Source: Candidatus Melainabacteria bacterium (lineage in GTDB: Bacteria; Cyanobacteriota; Vampirovibrionia; 2-02-FULL-35-15). Taken from it: a DNA stretch of 64,000 nucleotides. The notes beneath the pieces are model-generated. The model saw only the letters and a list, made by a program, of their open reading frames with translations. It was not told the DNA's origin and did not search any database. Made by a program: the position numbers and the translations under genes. Below, piece by piece: positions 4,960-57,979 of this stretch (positions are counted from its first letter, which is position 1; each line of letters begins with the position of its first letter). The stretch is taken from NCBI GenBank assembly GCA_016193285.1, contig JACPSL010000025.1:58523-122522 (forward strand). The letters are read 5' to 3'.

Positions 4960-6393
4960 ATGAGTATTAAAGAAGCATGTGGGGTTTTTGGTATAGTTGC
5001 TCCTGGTGAAGAAGTTGCCAGGCTTACATTTTTTAGTCTTTATGCTCTACAACACAGAGGACAAGAGAGTTGTGGGATAGCAACTTTTGATAACAAAGAT
5101 GTTTACCTTCATAAAAATATTGGAGTAGTTAGTCAGGTATTTGATGAAAATGTTTTAGCAAAGTTAAAAGGAGATATAGCTATTGGGCATACAAGATACT
5201 CAACAACTGGATCAAACAATATTTATAATGCCCAGCCAATTCTAGTAAGCTACCAAAACACAAAAATTGTTCTTGCACATAATGGTAATTTAGTAAATGC
5301 AACACATTTAAGAAATTTTTTACTCAATGAAGGTTACACATTTGAATCTACAACTGATAGTGAGGTAATGGTAAAACTAATTCTTTATGAACTTAAGAAT
5401 GAAAACAATTTAAAAATAGCAATAAGTAAGATCTTTCAAAATTGTAAAGGTGCATTTTCAGTTGTTATTGGTACAAATGATTATTTAATTGGTGTTAGAG
5501 ATCCTGATGGTATTAGGCCCTTATGTCTTGGAATTACAAGTAATGGGCATCATGTCATTGCATCAGAAAGCTGTGCCTTAGACATTTTAGGTGCAACATT
5601 TATTAGAGATATAGCTCCTGGTGAGATTGTGTATATTAGTAAAAATCAAAATATTGAATCAAGCTTGCTTGTACAAGAAATTAAACCTCATCATTGTATA
5701 TTTGAGCTAATTTATTTTTCAAGACCAGATAGTATTTTTAAAGGTTTAAGTATTTATCATTTCAGGACTGAATTAGGAAGACAACTTGCCAAGGAAGCAC
5801 CTGTAGATGCTGACTATGTGATTTCTGTGCCTGATTCAGGTACTCCTGCTGCAATTGGGTTTGCAGAAGAATCAAAGTTACCATTTACAGAAGCATTAAT
5901 AAAAAACAGATACATTGGGAGAACATTTATTCAACCATCACAAATGTTAAGAGAGCTTGGCATAAGATTAAAGCTAAATCCACTAAGGGACATAATTGCA
6001 GGCAAAAAAATTGTAGTAGTAGATGATTCAATTGTTAGAGGAAATACTTCAAGAAAAATTGTTGCTTTACTAAGAGATTCAGGTGCTAAAAAAGTTCATA
6101 TGAGAATAAGCTCTCCTCCAGTACAATGGCCTTGTTTTTATGGAATTGATATAGATTCACGCGATCAATTAATTGCAGCTAAAAGCAAGTCTTTAACTGA
6201 TGTAACAAAATTCATTGGAGCAGACAGTTTAGAATATATAAGTCATAAAGGAATGATAAAAGCAACTGGATTGCAAAGAGAAGTATTTTGTACTGCTTGT
6301 TTTAGTGGTGAGTATCCTATAGAAATCCCACAAGAATTAGAAGGTGCAAAGTTTAGATATGAAAATTACGAAAAGCAACAATTAACTAAATGA
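4960..6393 (+). CDS. purF: amidophosphoribosyltransferase
   Basis: N-terminal MCG nucleophile (MSIKEACGVFGI), a PRTase motif (VVVDDSIVRGNTS), and C-terminal Cys ligands. Confidence 0.9.
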   Translation: MSIKEACGVFGIVAPGEEVARLTFFSLYALQHRGQESCGIATFDNKDVYLHKNIGVVSQVFDENVLAKLKGDIAIGHTRYSTTGSNNIYNAQPILVSYQNTKIVLAHNGNLVNATHLRNFLLNEGYTFESTTDSEVMVKLILYELKNENNLKIAISKIFQNCKGAFSVVIGTNDYLIGVRDPDGIRPLCLGITSNGHHVIASESCALDILGATFIRDIAPGEIVYISKNQNIESSLLVQEIKPHHCIFELIYFSRPDSIFKGLSIYHFRTELGRQLAKEAPVDADYVISVPDSGTPAAIGFAEESKLPFTEALIKNRYIGRTFIQPSQMLRELGIRLKLNPLRDIIAGKKIVVVDDSIVRGNTSRKIVALLRDSGAKKVHMRISSPPVQWPCFYGIDIDSRDQLIAAKSKSLTDVTKFIGADSLEYISHKGMIKATGLQREVFCTACFSGEYPIEIPQELEGAKFRYENYEKQQLTK

Positions 6394-24386: not shown

Positions 24387-24651
24387 CTATTCTCCAAAGG
24401 CTGAAAGAGATTTAGAGAGATTTCGTAAAAGATATTGAAAATCATATAAAGATTTTATGTCATTATTACCTGCTTTGGAGTTGGATCCCTATGGTATTGG
24501 TAAACCTTTAAAAGGTGAATTTAAGGGATTGTATTCACTTCATTTTGGAAGAAAGCCTGAATGTCGTGCAATGTATGAAATAAAAAAGGATCTGGTAATA
24601 GTTGTTATATTAAGAATCGGAACTAGAGAAAATTTTTATGATATCTTTTAA
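24364..24651 (+). pseudogene. RelE/ParE-family toxin disrupted by two frameshifts
   Basis: Three consecutive frames give MQRKFKISYSPKAERDLERFRK / DIENHIKIL / LLPALELDPYGIGKPLKGE...YEIKKDLVIVVILRIGTRENFY. Together these reconstruct a canonical RelE-like protein. Confidence 0.55.
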
Positions 24652-24653
24652 GA

Positions 24654-25337
24654 ATGAAAGAAATAATCCTAGGCAAAAGTGTGCAAGGTAGGGAAATAAA
24701 AGGTTATTCTTTTGGGGATAAAGGATCTTTTAATAAGACACTAATGATTGGTGGTATACATGGGGTTGAAATACAATCAAAAGAAATTTGTGAGTTATAT
24801 TTAAGCAAAATAAATGAAGCAAAAGATAAAAAATTTCCAAACGATTTCTATCTACTTTTAATTCCATGCTTAAATCCTGATGGTATGGCTCTTAAGATAA
24901 GAGGTAATGCAAATGGTGTTGATTTAAACAGAAACTTTCCTTCAAACACATGGGAAAGTTCTTCACTAGCTGGAAACAGTTCTTACTTTCCAGGCATAAA
25001 ACCAGCCAGCGAGCCAGAGACAAAAGTCATTGTAGATCTTTTAAATAAATATAATTTTAAAAACATTATTGCAGTTCATACAAACTATACAATTCAGTTT
25101 CCAAATCCACCAATGATAAACTACGATGGTGAGCAGTCTCGTGAGCTTGCAGAAAAACTAAGTGTAGCAACCGGGCTTATGGTACATGCAGACATTGGTT
25201 ATCCAACTCCTGGCTCTCTTGGTACATGGATAGGAAAAGATTTAAAAAAAGTTTCAGTTACTGTTGAACTTGATCACACTAAAACTACAGAAGAACTTTA
25301 TAAAAAACATGGAAGATTCTTTGAAGTAGGGTATTAA
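24654..25337 (+). CDS. M14-family zinc carboxypeptidase-like protein (murein peptide amidase MpaA-like)
   Basis: Zn ligand motifs (GGIHGVE, NPDG...NRNF, H in AVHTNY), 227 aa. Confidence 0.65.
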   Translation: MKEIILGKSVQGREIKGYSFGDKGSFNKTLMIGGIHGVEIQSKEICELYLSKINEAKDKKFPNDFYLLLIPCLNPDGMALKIRGNANGVDLNRNFPSNTWESSSLAGNSSYFPGIKPASEPETKVIVDLLNKYNFKNIIAVHTNYTIQFPNPPMINYDGEQSRELAEKLSVATGLMVHADIGYPTPGSLGTWIGKDLKKVSVTVELDHTKTTEELYKKHGRFFEVGY

Positions 25338-25389: not shown

Positions 25390-26778
25390 ATGAATTTTAT
25401 AAACAGAAAAAGCGAGCTTGAAACATTAAGCAAGAAATGGGATGAAAAAAAACCTCACTTCTTTATTGTCTACGGGAAAAGAAGAGTAGGAAAAACTGAA
25501 TTAATAAAACAGTTTATTAAAAACAAAAATGGTATTTATTTCTTATCAGATAAAAGAACTGAGATTGAACAATTAAAAGAGCTAAGTAATATTATTGCTG
25601 AGCATTATAATGACTCTTTTTTAAGATCACGAGGTTTTAGCAACTGGCTTGAGATTTTTAGTTATATAAAAGAAAGAAAAAAAAAACTAATACTTGCAAT
25701 AGATGAATATCCTTATTTAATTGAAGCAAATAAAGCAATTACCTCCATATTTCAAAAAGGATGGGATGAGTATTTAAAAAACGAAAATGTTTTTTTAATT
25801 CTTTGTGGCTCAAGTATTTCTGTTATGGAATCAGAAGCATTAATCTATAAATCTCCATTATACGGAAGAAGAACAGGTCAGATTTTACTTAAACCTCTTT
25901 TATTTAAAGAAAGTGCAAAATTTTTCCCAAAAAAGAACTTCTCTGATTTTTTGTCAATTTTTACTATTACAGGTGGTATACCAGCTTACTTATTGCAAAT
26001 AGAACCTGATTTAAGTTTAAGGAAAAACATAGAAAGAAAAATATTTTCAAGAACAGAGTTCTTACATAATGAAGTAGAATTTATTTTAAAAGAAGAATTA
26101 CGAGAACCCAAAAATTACTTCGCAATATTAAAAGCTCTATCGTTTGGAAAAACCAAATTTAGTGAAGTAGCTAATGAAACAGGCTTAACGAAAAATGTTT
26201 TAACAAAATATTTGAATACTCTTGAAAGGCTTCAGTTAATTGAGAAAGAAACCCCAGTTACAGAAAAAATACCTGAAAAATCCAGAAAAGGAATTTATAA
26301 GATTTCTGATAATTTTTTTAAGTTTTATTTTCAATTTATTTATCCAAATAAAAGTTATATTGAATTAGAAAATTATTCCGAGGTAAATAGAAAGCTTGAT
26401 GAATCATTTAACATTTTAGAGTCTCAGTGCTATGAAAAAGTTTGCATGGAGCTTGTTCTTGATTTTCAGGATAAATTTTTTATTTTTGAAAGAATTGGAA
26501 GATGGTGGGAAAAAGATAATGAAATTGATATCGTGGCTACTTCATCAAGAACAAAAGAAATATTGTTTGGGGAAGTAAAATGGTCATCAAAGCAGGTAGG
26601 GACAAATATTCTTGAGGCTTTAAAATCAAAAGCAAAATTAGTAGACTGGAATATAAACAATAGAAAAGAATATTATGTCTTATTTGGCAAAAGTGGTTTT
26701 ACTCCTTCATTAATTAAGCAAGCCAGGAAAGAAAATGTGTTGCTTGTTCACCAAGACAAGGCAAAATTTAATTCTTAG
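25390..26778 (+). CDS. AAA-type ATPase of the DUF234 family (archaeal-ATPase-like)
   Basis: Walker A GKRRVGKTE, a Walker B-like LAIDEYPYL, and a C-terminal DUF234-like segment; 462 aa. Confidence 0.65.
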   Translation: MNFINRKSELETLSKKWDEKKPHFFIVYGKRRVGKTELIKQFIKNKNGIYFLSDKRTEIEQLKELSNIIAEHYNDSFLRSRGFSNWLEIFSYIKERKKKLILAIDEYPYLIEANKAITSIFQKGWDEYLKNENVFLILCGSSISVMESEALIYKSPLYGRRTGQILLKPLLFKESAKFFPKKNFSDFLSIFTITGGIPAYLLQIEPDLSLRKNIERKIFSRTEFLHNEVEFILKEELREPKNYFAILKALSFGKTKFSEVANETGLTKNVLTKYLNTLERLQLIEKETPVTEKIPEKSRKGIYKISDNFFKFYFQFIYPNKSYIELENYSEVNRKLDESFNILESQCYEKVCMELVLDFQDKFFIFERIGRWWEKDNEIDIVATSSRTKEILFGEVKWSSKQVGTNILEALKSKAKLVDWNINNRKEYYVLFGKSGFTPSLIKQARKENVLLVHQDKAKFNS

Positions 26779-27063: not shown

Positions 27064-27525
27064 TTATACCCTGAGTTCAAGTGGTGTAACAATTTCAGGG
27101 AGAAATAGACCTAATGTTGCATTTATATTTTTCATATGTATTTTCTTGTTTACGTTTGCTAGATGGGCACAGTTCCAGGTTAATAAGATATCAATTTTGT
27201 AAACTGAAGCAAATGCTAGATGCAATGCATCTCTCGTATCTTTTAATGGCATTAATTTATTCTTAAGATAGATTTCAATAATCTTATCAACTTGTTCTAT
27301 AGGATTTAATATATGGATGCCTTTTGTTAGCTTTATTGCATATATTTGATTTGGGAAATTTCCTCCTTTTAGTTCTTCTAAGACAAAATTGCTTATATAT
27401 AAATCATAAAAATGTTTTTCATTGTTCCACCATTCTCTTGTTCTCTTAATATGAACATCAAGCTCTGATCTTTCATCAACATAATAACTAAAAATAGTTG
27501 TATCTAAATAAACACTTTGTTTCAT
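27064..27525 (-). CDS. PIN-domain protein (VapC-like toxin), paralog 1
   Basis: N-terminal V-Y-L-D-T-T acidic motif and C-terminal DALHLAFASV...LLTWNCAHL region shared with the other two PIN paralogs. Confidence 0.65.
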   Translation of the reverse strand: MKQSVYLDTTIFSYYVDERSELDVHIKRTREWWNNEKHFYDLYISNFVLEELKGGNFPNQIYAIKLTKGIHILNPIEQVDKIIEIYLKNKLMPLKDTRDALHLAFASVYKIDILLTWNCAHLANVNKKIHMKNINATLGLFLPEIVTPLELRV

Positions 27526-28469: not shown

Positions 28470-28988
28470 TTATTGTGAAACAAATTCTCTTGGTGAAACA
28501 ATTTCAATTAAGCTATAACCTTCTCGTAAATTAATTACGTGAACACCTTTAATAGTTCTAGCTCGTACGATATGTTGAAAGTTCCATGAGACAATAAAAT
28601 CACAATGATTTAAACTAGCAACAGCAATGTGAATAGCATCATTGATAGCATTAGAAGGCATCAATCCTTCATTAGTATAAATCTTAGCTAGATTATATGA
28701 TTCATTGCTTGGAGTTAGAATCTCAGGTTGATATTTTTCAACCAATCTCAATAACTGTTTACGCCTTGTGTCATAAGCTCTATTAATTTCAACTTCAACA
28801 ACTTCTGATATACAAAGTAAATGACTTTTACTTTTACCATAAACTTCTAAAAAATCTATAGTTAGCCTGTACTCACTTCTATTGGTTTCAAGAGCTAAAT
28901 TCCATATAGAGGTATCAATATAAAGCTTTGTTTTCTTAATCATTATAATGATTATAACAGCTAGTTGTTCTGTCATGATATTCAACAA
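28470..28988 (-). CDS. PIN-domain protein (VapC-like toxin), paralog 2
   Basis: KLYIDTSIWN...DAIHIAVASL...SWNFQHIV...IEIVSPREF is close to paralog 3. The likely true start is MIKKTKLY at 28943, behind a TGnTATAAT box. Confidence 0.65.
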   Translation of the reverse strand: MLNIMTEQLAVIIIIMIKKTKLYIDTSIWNLALETNRSEYRLTIDFLEVYGKSKSHLLCISEVVEVEINRAYDTRRKQLLRLVEKYQPEILTPSNESYNLAKIYTNEGLMPSNAINDAIHIAVASLNHCDFIVSWNFQHIVRARTIKGVHVINLREGYSLIEIVSPREFVSQ

Positions 28989-29075
28989 AAAATATTTCTA
29001 AAGAAAGGAGCAAAAGAAGATCTTCTTGAACTAAATTACTACTTCGCTAGAAACTAGATGATAGAAGAACTTTCT

Positions 29076-29118
29076 AAAAAACACAAAAGATTTTTTGAGG
29101 TGAGGAGTAGGGGGATAA
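29076..29118. repeat. island repeat family A, copy 4
   Basis: Seen directly. Confidence 0.7.
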
Positions 29119-29427
29119 CACATCATCAGAGCGACACATCAAATATTAAGTCTTCATTCAAATTTTATAGATGTGACTTTTGGTTGCGTGAATTTTTAAT
29201 TCAATATGATATATTTACGAGCATGATCACTGAAGATAAAAAATATATCTCAAGTGTTTTAAAGAATTTAGGGTTCGCATTTCTAACACCTTTGGGCTCA
29301 GTTACTTTTCAATATCTGGTTCTAAAAAAGAGCTTCTTTAGTGGACACACGGCCTTATGTTCATTAGCATCATTTGTTGGTTGGTGATTATTGTTTTTAG
29401 GGTATAATTTTGTTAAGGAGAAGAAAA

Positions 29428-30386: not shown

Positions 30387-30480
30387 AAAAAATCAGCTCC
30401 TAGAAATACAATGCTTGTATGCAAATAAATTTGATAATGGTACAAAACTAACAGGTTCTTTAGTTCAAAAAACTGCACAT

Positions 30481-32274
30481 TTATGCAGCAATAATTTCTT
30501 CATTAATTGTTAATCTTTGATTCAATGGATTTAAATTGTTTATTAACTTAATCTTAACTGGTTTTTTATCGGGGGGTTGTTCTGTAGAGTATTGAATCAC
30601 TTTAGCGTTTTGTTTGTATTTGCTGTAATGTGCTAACTTTTTTACAGTGTGCATAGCATGAAAAATATTTCCAAAGGATGGATTTAAAGGCTCATTTCTT
30701 ATTCTCTGGTATTTTAAAAACTTATAATACCAGGATAAATAATAGTTAAATGCTGAAGATCTATCTTCACCATCAAACCCTTTCATGCTGTGATTAACGA
30801 CTAATGCTTCTTTTGCAGTTAAGGCAGCATATGACTCTCCATCTCCTGAAGAAGAAGTAATTATCGTCACATCTTTTACAGGAAGCTGCTTATTTCCAAT
30901 CTTAAAGTTTTGCAAGCAAGCAATTATTTTATCACCTTGAATTTCAGATCTACATGAGTCTGCAATTATAACAAACTTCATGCTCTTACAAAGTGGTCCA
31001 CCATTATCATCTAAGCTTGCAATTGCTTTTGCAATCTCTTCAGACGTAATATCACTGTCTGAAGCTTTTATACATCCATTCTTATCTCCATGCATATTAT
31101 AGTGAAATATGAAGGTTGTTTTACCACTAGCTTTTGCATTGTTTGCAGCTTTTATAAATCTATCTAAGATATTTTTTTTTGTAGCTGTTAAAGCTTTTGG
31201 TAAGGAACCATCTTTAACTTGTGGTAGTTCATCCCATATCCCACGGTTTTCTACACAAACAGTAAAGTCACTAATATTAAAATTTTCTTTGTAAGTCATT
31301 CCTATTTCAGCAAGGTCGTTTTCTATCTCAACTAATTCTCCAGGCACACTTGCTAAGAAACAAGCCGTACTCCCATCTTTTGGAATGTCAATTTTATAAA
31401 AATTCTCCCAGGATAATTGTTGTCCCTTAAAATTATTAGTTTCTAATTTTATTTTTTGTTTAATAAGTTCAATTAACTCATCTTCTGTTTTTATGTTACT
31501 TAATTCTAGACAACTTAATCCAATAAAAACAGGCTCACTATTTTTACTTGTAAAGTTATTAGCTAAGATGAATTCAAACACTCTGTGTATATTTCCATCA
31601 CCATTAGATATTCCAATACATTCAAGAGGAATACCAGTATCTTCCTTAACCTTATTTAAAACTGCATCCAGATTAAAATTCTTATCATTTTCTTGAAGGA
31701 TTTCAGTGAGTGTTTTATTTAAGAATACTTGGGTTTCCTTAAATGTAACTGTTTTTTGAAGGTTATTCAAAATAGCTTTTAGTTTTTTTGCAGTAGAAAT
31801 TACTTCACTAGCATATGGTTCATATTCATATAAACTTTTTGCTTGGTTTTCAAGGATAAAGTTAGGATCTATCAGGGCTAATTTAAATGCTGCTTCTTTT
31901 CTTATTTCTCTTGCTTTTTTGCTGCCAAGAGTTTCTTCTAATTTTTTGTAGTCGGTAAATATTAATCTTGGATTTTTTTCAACAGATGCATCTATACCTT
32001 CTTTAGGTATTTTTTCTAATTCTTCTTGATTCTTCTTATTTATTTCAACAGCGTTTGTAAAAAAAACAGATTTTATGAATCTTCCAAGTAATATAAATGG
32101 TGAAAAAAGTATTTTTAGCATTTTTACGAAAGTGCTACTTTTATCTTCAAGTACTTGAACTGATTGATACTGAGAGTTATTGGATTTAGCAAGTAAGGAG
32201 TTATTATGAGAACTAACATGTTGCAGATTATTCTTGTCCTCAACTTGATTTCTAAATCTAAAGCTAATTTCCAT
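30481..32274 (-). CDS. caspase/metacaspase-like (clan CD, C14-type) cysteine protease-domain protein
   Basis: The C-terminal half has FIFHYNMHGDKNG ... (46 aa) ... FVIIADSCRSE. This is a His-Gly / Asp-Ser-Cys dyad with the spacing and flanking beta-strand pattern of metacaspases (FHYSGHG ... DSCHSG). Confidence 0.6.
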   Translation of the reverse strand: MEISFRFRNQVEDKNNLQHVSSHNNSLLAKSNNSQYQSVQVLEDKSSTFVKMLKILFSPFILLGRFIKSVFFTNAVEINKKNQEELEKIPKEGIDASVEKNPRLIFTDYKKLEETLGSKKAREIRKEAAFKLALIDPNFILENQAKSLYEYEPYASEVISTAKKLKAILNNLQKTVTFKETQVFLNKTLTEILQENDKNFNLDAVLNKVKEDTGIPLECIGISNGDGNIHRVFEFILANNFTSKNSEPVFIGLSCLELSNIKTEDELIELIKQKIKLETNNFKGQQLSWENFYKIDIPKDGSTACFLASVPGELVEIENDLAEIGMTYKENFNISDFTVCVENRGIWDELPQVKDGSLPKALTATKKNILDRFIKAANNAKASGKTTFIFHYNMHGDKNGCIKASDSDITSEEIAKAIASLDDNGGPLCKSMKFVIIADSCRSEIQGDKIIACLQNFKIGNKQLPVKDVTIITSSSGDGESYAALTAKEALVVNHSMKGFDGEDRSSAFNYYLSWYYKFLKYQRIRNEPLNPSFGNIFHAMHTVKKLAHYSKYKQNAKVIQYSTEQPPDKKPVKIKLINNLNPLNQRLTINEEIIAA

Positions 32275-32352
32275 AATTAAAAAGATATGTTTAGGATTTT
32301 TATCCTAATATTTACAAAGTAAAAAGAAATTAATTTTTGATAATTTTTATGA

Positions 32353-33378
32353 TTAAGTGTTTTGAGTAACGTAATTCCAGGTAGGTGTAAATATCTTATC
32401 CTTTATAGCATTGCCAGCAAATTGATTTAAAAGTCCACCAGCACAAATTCCAGTGCATATTGTAAGCCCAATTGCTACCCAACCTACAGGGCTTATTAAA
32501 GCAAATGCTGCAGCTATTCCAAGTCCACACAAAGCTATATTTGTCCAAGCTTCACTAGTTCGCCCACCGTGAAATTTATTAACAATGCCAGCTATTTCAA
32601 AACCTGCTCCAAGTACTGACGCAATACCACCTAACCATTTAAGAGTACCTGCAAAAAATCCTTTCCATGAAGCTCCTGTTCCATTGATCGCTCGTCCTAC
32701 CAATGTTCTAGTCGACCATAACTTTTTATCATAAGATGCCAATTTAAATGCTTTATCAGCACCCATATATTTAGCTCTTTCGAAACCACTTGCAATTCCA
32801 CCTAGTTGAGCCATATTTACAGGATGAGTAAAAGCATCTCTTGCATTAGTACCTTTAAGAGTTTGTATAATGTCGTACTTATCTAATAAGAAATCTGGAT
32901 CTTTTATATGATCTTGTATGAGTTTGCATATTTTTAAGAAGTCTTCAGCATTAGATATTTTAAAGTTGCTTGCTAGTTCTTCTAACTTTTCTTTATTATA
33001 TTTTTTGTCTTCATCAAGGTTATCATAATTATCCTGTTCAGTATTTTTTCCTAACTGATCAATTATGTTACCTATTTGAATTACATCGAGCTTTCCACCT
33101 GTTACAGTATAAAAATGTTCTGCAAGAGATCTCATTTCTCTTTTATCTCGTTCTATTTGTCCATTAAGTTCTAAGAGTCCTTGATTATCTCTGGGTATTC
33201 CAATAAGAGCTGACTGAATAGCACTTTCTCTTGCAGTATAGCTTAAGCCTTTTTTGTTTTTATATGCTTCTCTTAGTTTTGCTAATTTAGGTTCAACATC
33301 ACTACCACCATCTCCAAGAGCTGTACTTGTTCTTCTACTACTACCAGTACGTGGTACAAGTATTTTAAGTATTATCAT
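32353..33378 (-). CDS. glycine-zipper membrane protein (soluble N-domain plus C-terminal 2-3 TM Gly/Ala-zipper helices)
   Basis: C-terminus LGGIASVLGAGFEIAG...RTSEAWTNIALCGLGIAAAFALISPVGWVAIGLTICTGICAGG...KDKIF; paralogous to the C-terminal domain of 37321..38121. Confidence 0.55.
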   Translation of the reverse strand: MIILKILVPRTGSSRRTSTALGDGGSDVEPKLAKLREAYKNKKGLSYTARESAIQSALIGIPRDNQGLLELNGQIERDKREMRSLAEHFYTVTGGKLDVIQIGNIIDQLGKNTEQDNYDNLDEDKKYNKEKLEELASNFKISNAEDFLKICKLIQDHIKDPDFLLDKYDIIQTLKGTNARDAFTHPVNMAQLGGIASGFERAKYMGADKAFKLASYDKKLWSTRTLVGRAINGTGASWKGFFAGTLKWLGGIASVLGAGFEIAGIVNKFHGGRTSEAWTNIALCGLGIAAAFALISPVGWVAIGLTICTGICAGGLLNQFAGNAIKDKIFTPTWNYVTQNT

Positions 33379-36986: not shown

Positions 36987-37028
36987 TTGACAGCTAAAAA
37001 AATATTAAACTTTGTAACTTGCTGTCAA
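36987..37028. promoter_or_regulatory. inverted repeat TTGACAGC-N26-GCTGTCAA in the divergent intergenic region
   Basis: Seen directly, ~55-95 nt upstream of the minus-strand operon start. Both arms are TTGACA -35-like hexamers facing outward. Confidence 0.35.
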
Positions 37029-40015: not shown

Positions 40016-40501
40016 TTATTTTCCCAAGAATTGTCTTGGTGAAACTAATTCTATTAATGCATAACCTTCTCGTAGATTAATTATGTGTACTCCTTTGACA
40101 ACCTTTGCTTTGACTATATGCTTAAAGTTCCATGAAACAAGAAAGTCGCATTTGATTAATGATGCTATTGCAATATGCATAGCATCATCTCTATATTTAG
40201 CTGGTATTAATTTTTCACTAATGTAGGTATTTGCTAAGTTAAGTGTTTCTTCTTTATCAGGTTGAATAACTTCTGGGCTAAATGAATCAATTAATCTTGC
40301 AAGTTCATTTTTTCTTTTAGCACTTGCCCTATTCATCTCATCTTCTACAAGGTCTGAGATTAGTACTGTATAATTACTTCTCTTGTTTCTAAGCATCTTA
40401 AAAAAATCCCATGTTACTAAACAATCTGCTCTTTCTGTTTCGAGAGCAAAATTCCAGACTGAAGTATCAATATAAAGTTTTAGTGGTTTCCCCATTTTCA
40501 A
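40016..40501 (-). CDS. PIN-domain protein (VapC-like toxin), paralog 3
   Basis: LKLYIDTSVWN...DAMHIAIASL...SWNFKHIV...IELVSPRQF. Confidence 0.65.
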   Translation of the reverse strand: MKMGKPLKLYIDTSVWNFALETERADCLVTWDFFKMLRNKRSNYTVLISDLVEDEMNRASAKRKNELARLIDSFSPEVIQPDKEETLNLANTYISEKLIPAKYRDDAMHIAIASLIKCDFLVSWNFKHIVKAKVVKGVHIINLREGYALIELVSPRQFLGK

Positions 40502-56092: not shown

Positions 56093-57979
56093 ATGTGTGG
56101 AATTGTAGGGATTATAGGTTCGTCTACTATAGAAAGTGATTTTAATGAAATTACTGATCTCTTACAACATAGAGGTCCGGATGATAGAGGAACAGTAGTT
56201 TTAGACAAAAAAGTTTTTTTAGGACACAGAAGACTTTCAGTAATTGATTTAAGCTTAAATGCTAGACAGCCCATGTCTAATGAAGATAAGAGTATCTGGA
56301 TTACATATAATGGGGAAGTTTATAATTTTCTAGAACTTCGCAGGAACTTGCAAGATATTGGTTGTAAGTTTAAATCAAAATCTGATACTGAAGTAATACT
56401 TAAGCTTTATGAAACAAAAGGAGAAAGTTGTGTAAATGATTTAAATGGAATGTTTGCATTTGCAGTTTATGATAGCAGGAAAAATCAAATTTTTATTGCG
56501 CGTGATAGGCTTGGAATAAAACCTTTATACTATGCAAATTACAATGGAAACCTAGTCTTTGCTTCAGAAATTAAAGCAATTCTTGCTACAAATCTTATCC
56601 CAAAAGAAATAAACTGGCAGTCTGTTTATAATTATTTTTCATTTTCATTTGTGCCAAATCCAGCTACTGCATTTAAAAATATTAAACAACTTCCTCCAGC
56701 ACATTATCTTACTTTTAATTTAGTAAAAAATGAATTAAATATTCAAAAATATTGGGAGCCATTTAGTGAAATAAAAAATAATTATAGTTATTTTGAACTA
56801 AAAGAAAGACTTAGGTTTTATTTAGAAGATTCAGTTAAAATGCAGCTTGTAAGCGATGTTCCACTAGGTGTATTTTTAAGTGGGGGGATTGACTCAACCA
56901 TATTAGCAGCCTTAGCTACAAAACATTCTTTAAAAAAACTTAAAACATTTACTGTTACTTTTCCTCAGGAAGAATTAGTTCAATATGATGAAAGTAAAAG
57001 AGCTAAGTATGTAAGTGAATTTTTTAACTCAGAACATTTAGAACTTCCTGTTGAGTCTACTAAGTCTGAAGAAATCACTGAACTTATTTCTTGTTTTGAT
57101 CAACCTTTTGGAAATCCTACTTTTTATCTTTCATATTTAATATCAAAATTAACTAAGGAGCATGTAACAGTTACATTAACTGGTGTTGGTGGAGATGAAT
57201 TGTTTGGCGGGTATTCAAGATACAAAGTTTTAAGATTTGCAAAATTAATAAATTCTTTTCCTGATTTATTTACTAATGTTGCTTTAAAGATGTGTGATTT
57301 GATTCCACGAGAAAAATTTAGTCCCTTACTTAGAAGAATGAAATTATTGTTTTCTAGCTTTGGCTCATCTTTTTCCAAGCAGTATATGATGTGGTCTTAT
57401 TATTTTAGTGATTTAGAAAAAAGCAAGCTGTTCCTTCCATCTTTTTCCCAAAATAAGATAATTAAACCCTCAATAAGTTTAATAAATAACTATTTAAATC
57501 ATTCTAAAGATTTAAATGTAATAAATTCTATTGAATATCTTGATTTAAATATGTTTCTTGTGGATAACTTGCTTGAGTATACTGATAAAACTACAATGGC
57601 TTTTGGGCTTGAAAGCAGGGTTCCATTTTTAGATCATAGAATTGTTGAATTAAGTCTTGCAATTCCAGGAAAATATAAAGTTAGTAGTTTAAATTCAAAA
57701 ATTATTTTAAAAGATACTTTTTCAGACTTGTTACCTTCTTCAATAAAAAAAATGCCAAAGAAAGGTTTTTCTGCTCCAATATATATTTGGATTGAAAAAT
57801 ATTTTGATTTTTATTTTGAAAAAATACTTTCAAAAAGCTACCTGGATAAACAAGGGATCATAAACTGGGATTATGTGCAAGCTTTAAGAAGAGAACACAA
57901 GTGTAAAAAAGATGATAACTCTATGAAACTCTTTAGTATAATTATGTTTGATGTTTGGTATAAGAAATATTTTAGTTAG
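56093..57979 (+). CDS. asnB: asparagine synthase (glutamine-hydrolysing)
   Basis: MCGIVGI N-terminal nucleophile and SGGIDS PP-loop. Confidence 0.85.
   Translation: MCGIVGIIGSSTIESDFNEITDLLQHRGPDDRGTVVLDKKVFLGHRRLSVIDLSLNARQPMSNEDKSIWITYNGEVYNFLELRRNLQDIGCKFKSKSDTEVILKLYETKGESCVNDLNGMFAFAVYDSRKNQIFIARDRLGIKPLYYANYNGNLVFASEIKAILATNLIPKEINWQSVYNYFSFSFVPNPATAFKNIKQLPPAHYLTFNLVKNELNIQKYWEPFSEIKNNYSYFELKERLRFYLEDSVKMQLVSDVPLGVFLSGGIDSTILAALATKHSLKKLKTFTVTFPQEELVQYDESKRAKYVSEFFNSEHLELPVESTKSEEITELISCFDQPFGNPTFYLSYLISKLTKEHVTVTLTGVGGDELFGGYSRYKVLRFAKLINSFPDLFTNVALKMCDLIPREKFSPLLRRMKLLFSSFGSSFSKQYMMWSYYFSDLEKSKLFLPSFSQNKIIKPSISLINNYLNHSKDLNVINSIEYLDLNMFLVDNLLEYTDKTTMAFGLESRVPFLDHRIVELSLAIPGKYKVSSLNSKIILKDTFSDLLPSSIKKMPKKGFSAPIYIWIEKYFDFYFEKILSKSYLDKQGIINWDYVQALRREHKCKKDDNSMKLFSIIMFDVWYKKYFS

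Follow-up and report, generated by a model that had tools for sequence, protein, structure and literature searches.

The window, as we call the whole stretch of DNA analysed here, comprises 64,000 nucleotides of a Candidatus Melainabacteria contig (JACPSL010000025.1, assembly GCA_016193285.1, positions 58,523 to 122,522 of the forward strand). At 30481..32274 on the reverse strand it carries a single open reading frame (ORF) with an ATG start, whose 597-aa product we predict to be a caspase-type protease (the coordinates include the stop codon). The exact protein sequence is deposited at NCBI as MBI2996175.1, under the name [quoted passage not shown] (MAG, metagenome-assembled genome). As this name was already public, the caspase-type identification, which a preliminary description of the DNA had also made, is not new. 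The window is chromosomal, has a G + C content of ~30% and carries carB, purF, fabF, murE, rodA and aspA. Its contig is also present in the Logan assemblies of SRR12113425 and SRR12113418. By BLAST, the protease gene has no paralogue elsewhere in the window, and the 597-aa protein has no detectable internal repeat.

The putative catalytic dyad lies in two motifs, both placed by script on the reverse strand: FHYNMHG (aa 390-396, window 31107-31087) and IIADSCRSE (aa 436-444, window 30969-30943). The predicted catalytic His395 (codon 31090..31092) stands directly after the strand 387-394 and is followed by the invariant Gly396; the predicted catalytic Cys441 (codon 30952..30954) comes after the strand 433-439. 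The two residues are separated by exactly 46 positions. The preliminary description had reported both motifs and this spacing correctly, and the region it marked, 30481-31400, corresponds to aa ~292-597, that is, the C-terminal ~300 aa with the protease domain.

Pfam PF00656 (Peptidase_C14) matched aa 364-483 with an E value of 2.3e-5 and 24.7 bits, above the gathering cut-off of 21.4. No match to the protein was found for PF01650 (C13, legumain), nor for PF12770 (CHAT), which had been proposed for checking alongside PF00656. NCBIfam and PHROGs gave nothing significant for the protease or its four same-strand neighbours, and PADLOC returned a weak "caspase" match for the protease (E 0.0045). 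From the single sequence, without an alignment, AlphaFold2 (AF2) produced an unusable model, with a predicted local distance difference test (pLDDT) score of 34.5. With a 42-sequence family alignment the pLDDT rose to 81.8 and the predicted template modelling (pTM) score was 0.81, most of aa 90-575 being above 85. Pfam, the AF2 model and Foldseek together delimited a peptidase domain of the caspase-haemoglobinase fold at aa 296-576 (30547..31389, reverse strand). In the model it has strands at 303-310, 336-341, 387-394, 433-439, 468-473 and 558-563 with helices between them, forming the alpha/beta/alpha sandwich with a central six-stranded sheet typical of this fold. According to DSSP, strand 387-394 is followed by His395-Gly396, and strand 433-439 by Ser440-Cys441. 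In clan CD, beta3 and beta4 end in the loops L3 and L4, which carry the dyad (PMC4357240). The model places His395 and Cys441 in the same manner, on the loops after beta3 and beta4, each behind a hydrophobic strand. Foldseek searches with the model retrieved caspase-7, caspase-8 and caspase-3 from the PDB (E 5e-5 to 1e-4), and giant-virus caspases and metacaspases from the viral proteins of BFVD (E ~1e-6). As modelled, the 597-aa protein is a clan CD protein of the caspase-type fold, whose His and Cys take the places of the canonical dyad. The caspase/metacaspase reading given earlier is thus upheld by the Pfam match, by the structural matches to caspases and by the alignment of the dyad on the metacaspase Yca1.

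This alignment comes from a profile of the protease domain of the family, for which Yca1 was the sole match among PDB sequences, with an E value of 0.3, not significant by itself. In it, FVlHYmmHG of the family falls on LFLHYSGHG of Yca1, iiaeSCysg on LFDSCHSG, and GiesD on GCIND. Phmmer and profile searches of the PDB sequences gave no significant caspase match. The profile of the full-length family retrieved from the PDB only designed helical-repeat proteins, covering the N-terminal region, and these were discarded. Two acidic residues are candidates for the S1 pocket. Asp320, at the start of helix 1 (codon 31315..31317, reverse strand), is Asp in 33/42 relatives and aligns with the Asp of "GCIND". 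Asp439, two residues before the Cys (codon 30958..30960, reverse strand), is Glu or Asp in 28/42 relatives. Both fall at the positions of the metacaspase S1 acids, as read from the E 0.3 alignment with Yca1. In TbMCA2 the S1 acids are Asp95, on alpha1, and Asp211, the equivalent of Asp439 (PMC4357240). The sequence after His-Gly, DKNGCIKASDSDITSEE, did not show the dense Asp/Glu cluster of Yca1, judged by eye only. The protein ends ~20 aa past the peptidase core, and no legumain-type C-terminal prodomain follows.

The N-terminal part had been described as lacking a recognisable domain and as a possible sensor. Pfam indeed found no domain in its ~300 aa; residues ~100-295 are, however, conserved across the family. 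They hold two family-specific regions common to all full-length members. The first, aa 83-213 (31636..32028, reverse strand), is conserved and all-helical, with loosely repeated "DP...y..kPya.e" units and an AF2 pLDDT of 85-97. The second, aa 217-290 (31405..31626, reverse strand), is a small alpha/beta domain recognized from family conservation and the model, with three strands, then two helices, and the consensus FN..g.SL.C.GI...EFVF.NTF...P.RI...W, in which P248 and W289 are near-invariant. The high pTM suggests that this N-terminal module and the protease would form one compact body.

Ahead of the module, the family members carry variable extensions of 0-560 aa. In the 597-aa protein the variable N-terminus, aa 1-81 (32032..32274, reverse strand), was modelled with low confidence (pLDDT <50) and is unaligned in the relatives. 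Its first 48 residues are polar and N/S/Q-rich. They are followed by a weakly hydrophobic or amphipathic helix, aa 49-73 (FVKMLKILFSPFILLGRFIKSVFFT; 32056..32130, reverse strand), with four Lys/Arg and a Kyte-Doolittle value of 1.63. This helix is a possible, uncertain membrane anchor or signal-like segment. In about 10/42 relatives the N-terminus is signal-peptide-like or weakly hydrophobic (first 30 residues, by eye); only three of them, plus the 597-aa protein, passed the hydropathy threshold, and one relative has a lipoprotein-type LAAC box at its N-terminus. A start at the in-frame Met52 would give the 597-aa ORF a signal-peptide-like N-terminus (MLKILFSPFILLG...). In the upstream DNA, no canonical or convincing Shine-Dalgarno sequence was seen before Met1 or Met52. 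A small inverted repeat, AGGATAAAAATCCT, lies at 32296-32309 (reverse strand), ~22-35 nt 5' of the ATG, its 3' end being 22 nt from the start codon.

Relatives of the protein are rare. When 1.84 billion representative proteins were searched exhaustively with HMMER, only 45 matched at E<=1e-3, with 24-39% identity and typically over aa ~100-577, thus extending beyond the protease domain. A word-indexed search of 5.8 billion proteins, with the single sequence or the alignment, returned only the query, this method being insensitive at ~30% identity. The family alignment used here contains 42 homologues, 17-31% identical to the 597-aa protein within the alignment. Across them only H395, G396 and C441 are invariant. 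Since these are the sole invariant columns among 42 divergent homologues, the dyad is more than a chance pattern, and the conservation of the putative active site in the alignment indicates purifying selection. Near-invariant are, next to P248 and W289, A380, G400 (39/42) and Q446 (39/42). Conserved too are E318 (34/42), D320, the acid at 439, H391 and Y392, likewise the hydrophobic strands flanking the dyad motifs. The His-Cys spacing varies between 38 and 61 residues, with a mode of 45-46.

Profile libraries recognize few members of this family. With full-length relatives, Pfam C14 and Pfam C13 each matched 1/42 at E<=0.01; with domains only, at E<=10, C14 matched 3/20, C13 2/20, and C80 and Raptor_N one each. 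At the usual thresholds, 3/42 relatives had any clan CD Pfam match. The group is a distinct, divergent branch of clan CD, structurally equidistant from C14B and C13. Its sequence motifs lean toward the metacaspases, with L.G.E.D on helix 1 and an acid at Cys-2. We found no account in the literature of this rare branch of clan CD and its family-specific N-terminal module.

The ten best relatives are metagenome proteins, one of them labelled only "hypothetical protein". Including the 597-aa protein, six carriers could be placed, all in Melainabacteria or in Peribacteria of the Candidate Phyla Radiation (CPR). P0015 belongs to Melainabacteria, the RecA of its contig sharing a 90%-identity cluster with RecA of Candidatus Melainabacteria RIFCSPLOWO2 MAGs. 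The closest relative, P0010, was also assigned to Melainabacteria: the ArgJ of its contig is 74-78% identical to Melainabacteria-named ArgJ entries, and past ~60-85% relatives, mostly metagenome proteins, the identity falls to <=52%. P0019 was placed in Melainabacteria by synteny with P0010 (gene-UDG-ArgJ-PilO). P0019 (392 aa; L014 10001-11179) lacks the N-terminal helical region, and a 122-aa ORF just upstream (L014 9471-9839) resembles that region, which suggests that the P0019 gene is split or frameshifted. On the CPR side, P0013 has a neighbour gene that clusters with a Candidatus Peribacteraceae protein, and L006 lies in a Candidatus Peribacteria MAG. The latter came from a scan of GTDB with a degenerate DNA pattern for F-h-h-H-Y-x-M-H-G-x3-G, which covers ~11/42 of the motif variants and is far from complete. 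Its seven loci included one true member, L006, and did not include the window's own MAG.

Caspase-like proteases are common in bacteria. The preliminary description had considered the presence of one to be of note if the host were a marine picocyanobacterium. The host is a member of Candidatus Melainabacteria, a non-photosynthetic relative of Cyanobacteria; all nine proteins of the window that were looked up are NCBI entries of a MAG from this group (HYY52_056xx tags where shown). The idea of Prochlorococcus probably came from the low G + C content. The statement that picocyanobacteria lack metacaspases and orthocaspases was correct for Prochlorococcus, which has no p20-domain proteins (PMC6426788), and is irrelevant to this host.

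We compared the protein with metacaspases and orthocaspases of MEROPS C14B, e.g., Yca1 (4F6O/4F6P), AtMC9 (8A53), AtMC4 (6W8R) and TbMCA2 (4AF8). In structural alignments it is only 14-17% identical to them, and Pfam C14 misses 41/42 of its relatives at E<=0.01. Unlike metacaspases, the protein has no evident acidic cluster of the Ca2+ site after His-Gly, as judged by eye, and a family-specific N-terminal module of ~200 aa takes the place of the Pro/Gln-rich or zinc-finger prodomain. From legumain, asparaginyl endopeptidase and GPI8 (C13; 4AW9, 5H0I, 7W72) it differs by having no Pfam C13 match, no C-terminal prodomain and a metacaspase-like loop after strand 1. Caspases proper (C14A) have Gln-Ala-Cys-Arg-Gly where Asp-Ser-Cys is found here; basic S1 residues are not evident in the 597-aa protein, so that an Asp-P1 specificity is not expected. 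The CHAT and defence caspase-like proteases (SAVED-CHAT 8TL0, gasdermin-activating) are set apart by PF12770, SAVED, TPR or NACHT domains and by a gasdermin or another conserved partner, none of which was found here.

Taken together, we consider it likely that the gene encodes an active, standalone, metacaspase-like peptidase of clan CD, from a rare and undescribed family between the C14 metacaspase/orthocaspase branch and the legumains (C13). In such an enzyme the thiolate of Cys441 would act as nucleophile and His395 as general base, both residues being located on loops that follow parallel beta-strands of the central sheet. A preference for a basic P1 residue (Arg/Lys), set by Asp320 and Asp439, would be expected because these residues correspond in position to Asp95 and Asp211 of TbMCA2. 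Activity may be independent of the metacaspase Ca2+ site, given that the acidic cluster after His-Gly appears to be absent. The N-terminal module (aa ~90-295) would pack on the protease domain and may have a pro-, regulatory or substrate-selecting role. The gene presumably works on its own, because none of the genomic contexts read for five relatives has a neighbour in common with it.

Several observations weigh against this interpretation. The profile-Yca1 alignment behind the S1 assignment is the one with the E value of 0.3, not significant by itself. In structure the protein is as similar to legumain/GPI8 as it is to metacaspases, and one relative scores on Pfam C13 instead of C14; P1 could therefore be Asn/Asp or another residue. 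Around the active site the 597-aa protein deviates from the family consensus, with Glu316 in place of Gly (34/42 relatives), Arg442 in place of Tyr/Phe (32/42) and Glu444 in place of Gly (30/42). Catalysis by Cys441/His395 is predicted from the sequence and the model.

Five same-strand genes lie consecutively between 36933 and 29604 (reverse strand) and encode proteins of 375, 765, 341, 597 and 260 aa; the protease gene is the fourth. Only the protease has a family assignment; for the other four none was obtained with Pfam, PADLOC or PHROGs. The products of all five are singleton 90% clusters in a collection of 15 billion proteins. A terminator-like hairpin, GCTGCA-TAAATG-TGCAGT followed by TTTTTT, overlaps the stop codon of the protease gene (30472..30489, reverse strand). 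Its position suggests that this gene is the end of its transcription unit; terminator-like sites in the region do not exceed the number expected by chance, and it is the position alone that is suggestive. Around the protease, 24.4-40.5 kb of the window form a dense island of toxin-antitoxin and defence-type genes. We found there a ParE-like toxin (~24457-24651), an M14 carboxypeptidase (24654-25337), an ATPase_2/DUF234 protein (25390-26778) matching the PADLOC candidate system PDC-S27 with an E value of 1.8e-55, and three PIN-domain proteins or toxins (27064-27525, 28470-28988 and 40016-40501). When seven neighbours from the window were searched by tblastn against all fetched loci of relatives, and five contexts were read, none recurred. 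Likewise, no functionally similar partner or membrane-protein type was evident in the five contexts. No conserved adjacent effector or sensor gene, of the gasdermin type or another defence type, was met with, and PADLOC found no system partner. The best reading of this context is a protease gene that acts alone, encoding a standalone peptidase, and sits in a variable island of toxin-antitoxin and orphan genes.

A different role could be read from the same island, namely that the protease belongs to a defence or toxin-activation module and processes a neighbouring orphan, e.g., the 341-aa membrane protein with three helices. Caspase-like proteases activate bacterial gasdermins, and CHAT proteases act in CRISPR and in cyclic-oligonucleotide-based antiphage signalling systems (CBASS). 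The run of five same-strand genes, in which a terminator-like hairpin immediately follows the protease gene, the three Gly-rich hydrophobic helices of the protein encoded upstream, the PIN and ParE toxins and the PDC-S27-like ATPase of the island, and the weak PADLOC "caspase" match all fit such a role, as does the finding that relatives, too, lie near HicA, a recombinase and orphan genes. However, no neighbour recurs in the five contexts of relatives, either by sequence or by membrane-protein type, and two of the Melainabacteria relatives sit among housekeeping genes (UDG-ArgJ-PilO). Gasdermin, CHAT, SAVED, NACHT and TPR gave no match, and PHROGs found nothing. We regard a defence function as quite improbable.

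The equal structural similarity to legumain/GPI8 and the C13-scoring relative would also suit a C13-like Asn/Asp endopeptidase or transpeptidase acting outside the cytoplasm, e.g., in the maturation or attachment of surface proteins. This we hold to be unlikely, since the 597-aa protein matched C14 and not C13, the sole PDB sequence found by the family profile was the metacaspase Yca1, and the loop after strand 1, VP..L.G.E.D, resembles the L.GC.ND motif of metacaspases. The same loop is without the Arg-His pair that we take to belong to the legumain S1 pocket, and the protein stops too close to the core, after ~20 aa, to have a legumain-type C-terminal prodomain. Least probable by far is a catalytically dead scaffold, comparable to the pseudo-orthocaspases or the N-terminal domain of Raptor. 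The pseudo-orthocaspases treated in PMC6426788 have Tyr-Ser in place of His-Cys, whereas the 597-aa protein retains His, Gly and Cys, none of which varies among the 42 relatives.

An active, metacaspase-like peptidase of this kind would cleanly exemplify a branch of clan CD that goes almost unrecognized by current profile libraries. With 45 matches among 1.84 billion proteins the branch is extremely rare; Melainabacteria and Peribacteria are the only carriers to which it has been traced so far, and it has a conserved accessory module without a known fold family or relative. Standing halfway between metacaspases and legumains, it could shed light on the divergence of P1 specificity and regulation in clan CD, and the enzymology of the family is directly testable with standard fluorogenic substrates. 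Beyond this, one may speculate about a new clan CD family at the MEROPS level, defined by its module and spread by horizontal transfer between Melainabacteria and Peribacteria, whose members would be exported or surface proteases in cell-cell interactions (predation or episymbiosis), or, here, the activator of the adjacent glycine-zipper protein; such a scenario appears doubtful at present.

Immediately upstream of the protease gene lies an orphan gene (32353-33378, reverse strand) whose 341-aa product carries three glycine-rich hydrophobic helices C-terminally (aa 248-316). In this the product is similar to membrane toxins of the glycine-zipper type or to bacteriocin-like proteins; it had no Pfam, PHROG or meaningful PADLOC match. 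A TTGACA-type promoter-like site was seen at 37028, ahead of the five-gene run. Among the relatives, P0019 (L014) and P0010 (L016), both from Melainabacteria-like genomes, fill the same chromosomal slot beside UDG-ArgJ-PilO. In L016 the slot holds extra inserted orphan genes and a HicA toxin, and is therefore a variable region. Downstream of the five-gene run, a 109-aa ORF (29058-29387, forward strand) matches a small-ORF region (5590-5682) with 58% identity over 31 aa; this region belongs to L012, the Melainabacteria contig carrying P0015; the match may reflect a small conserved gene or chance. Further along, from 41122 to 63048, the forward strand carries a long series of genes that are closely spaced and in many cases overlap. 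Its products include an NTP-transferase, an epimerase and, at 56093-57979, an asparagine-synthase/XrtA-type amidotransferase, and the series looks like a surface-polysaccharide or glycosylation cluster.
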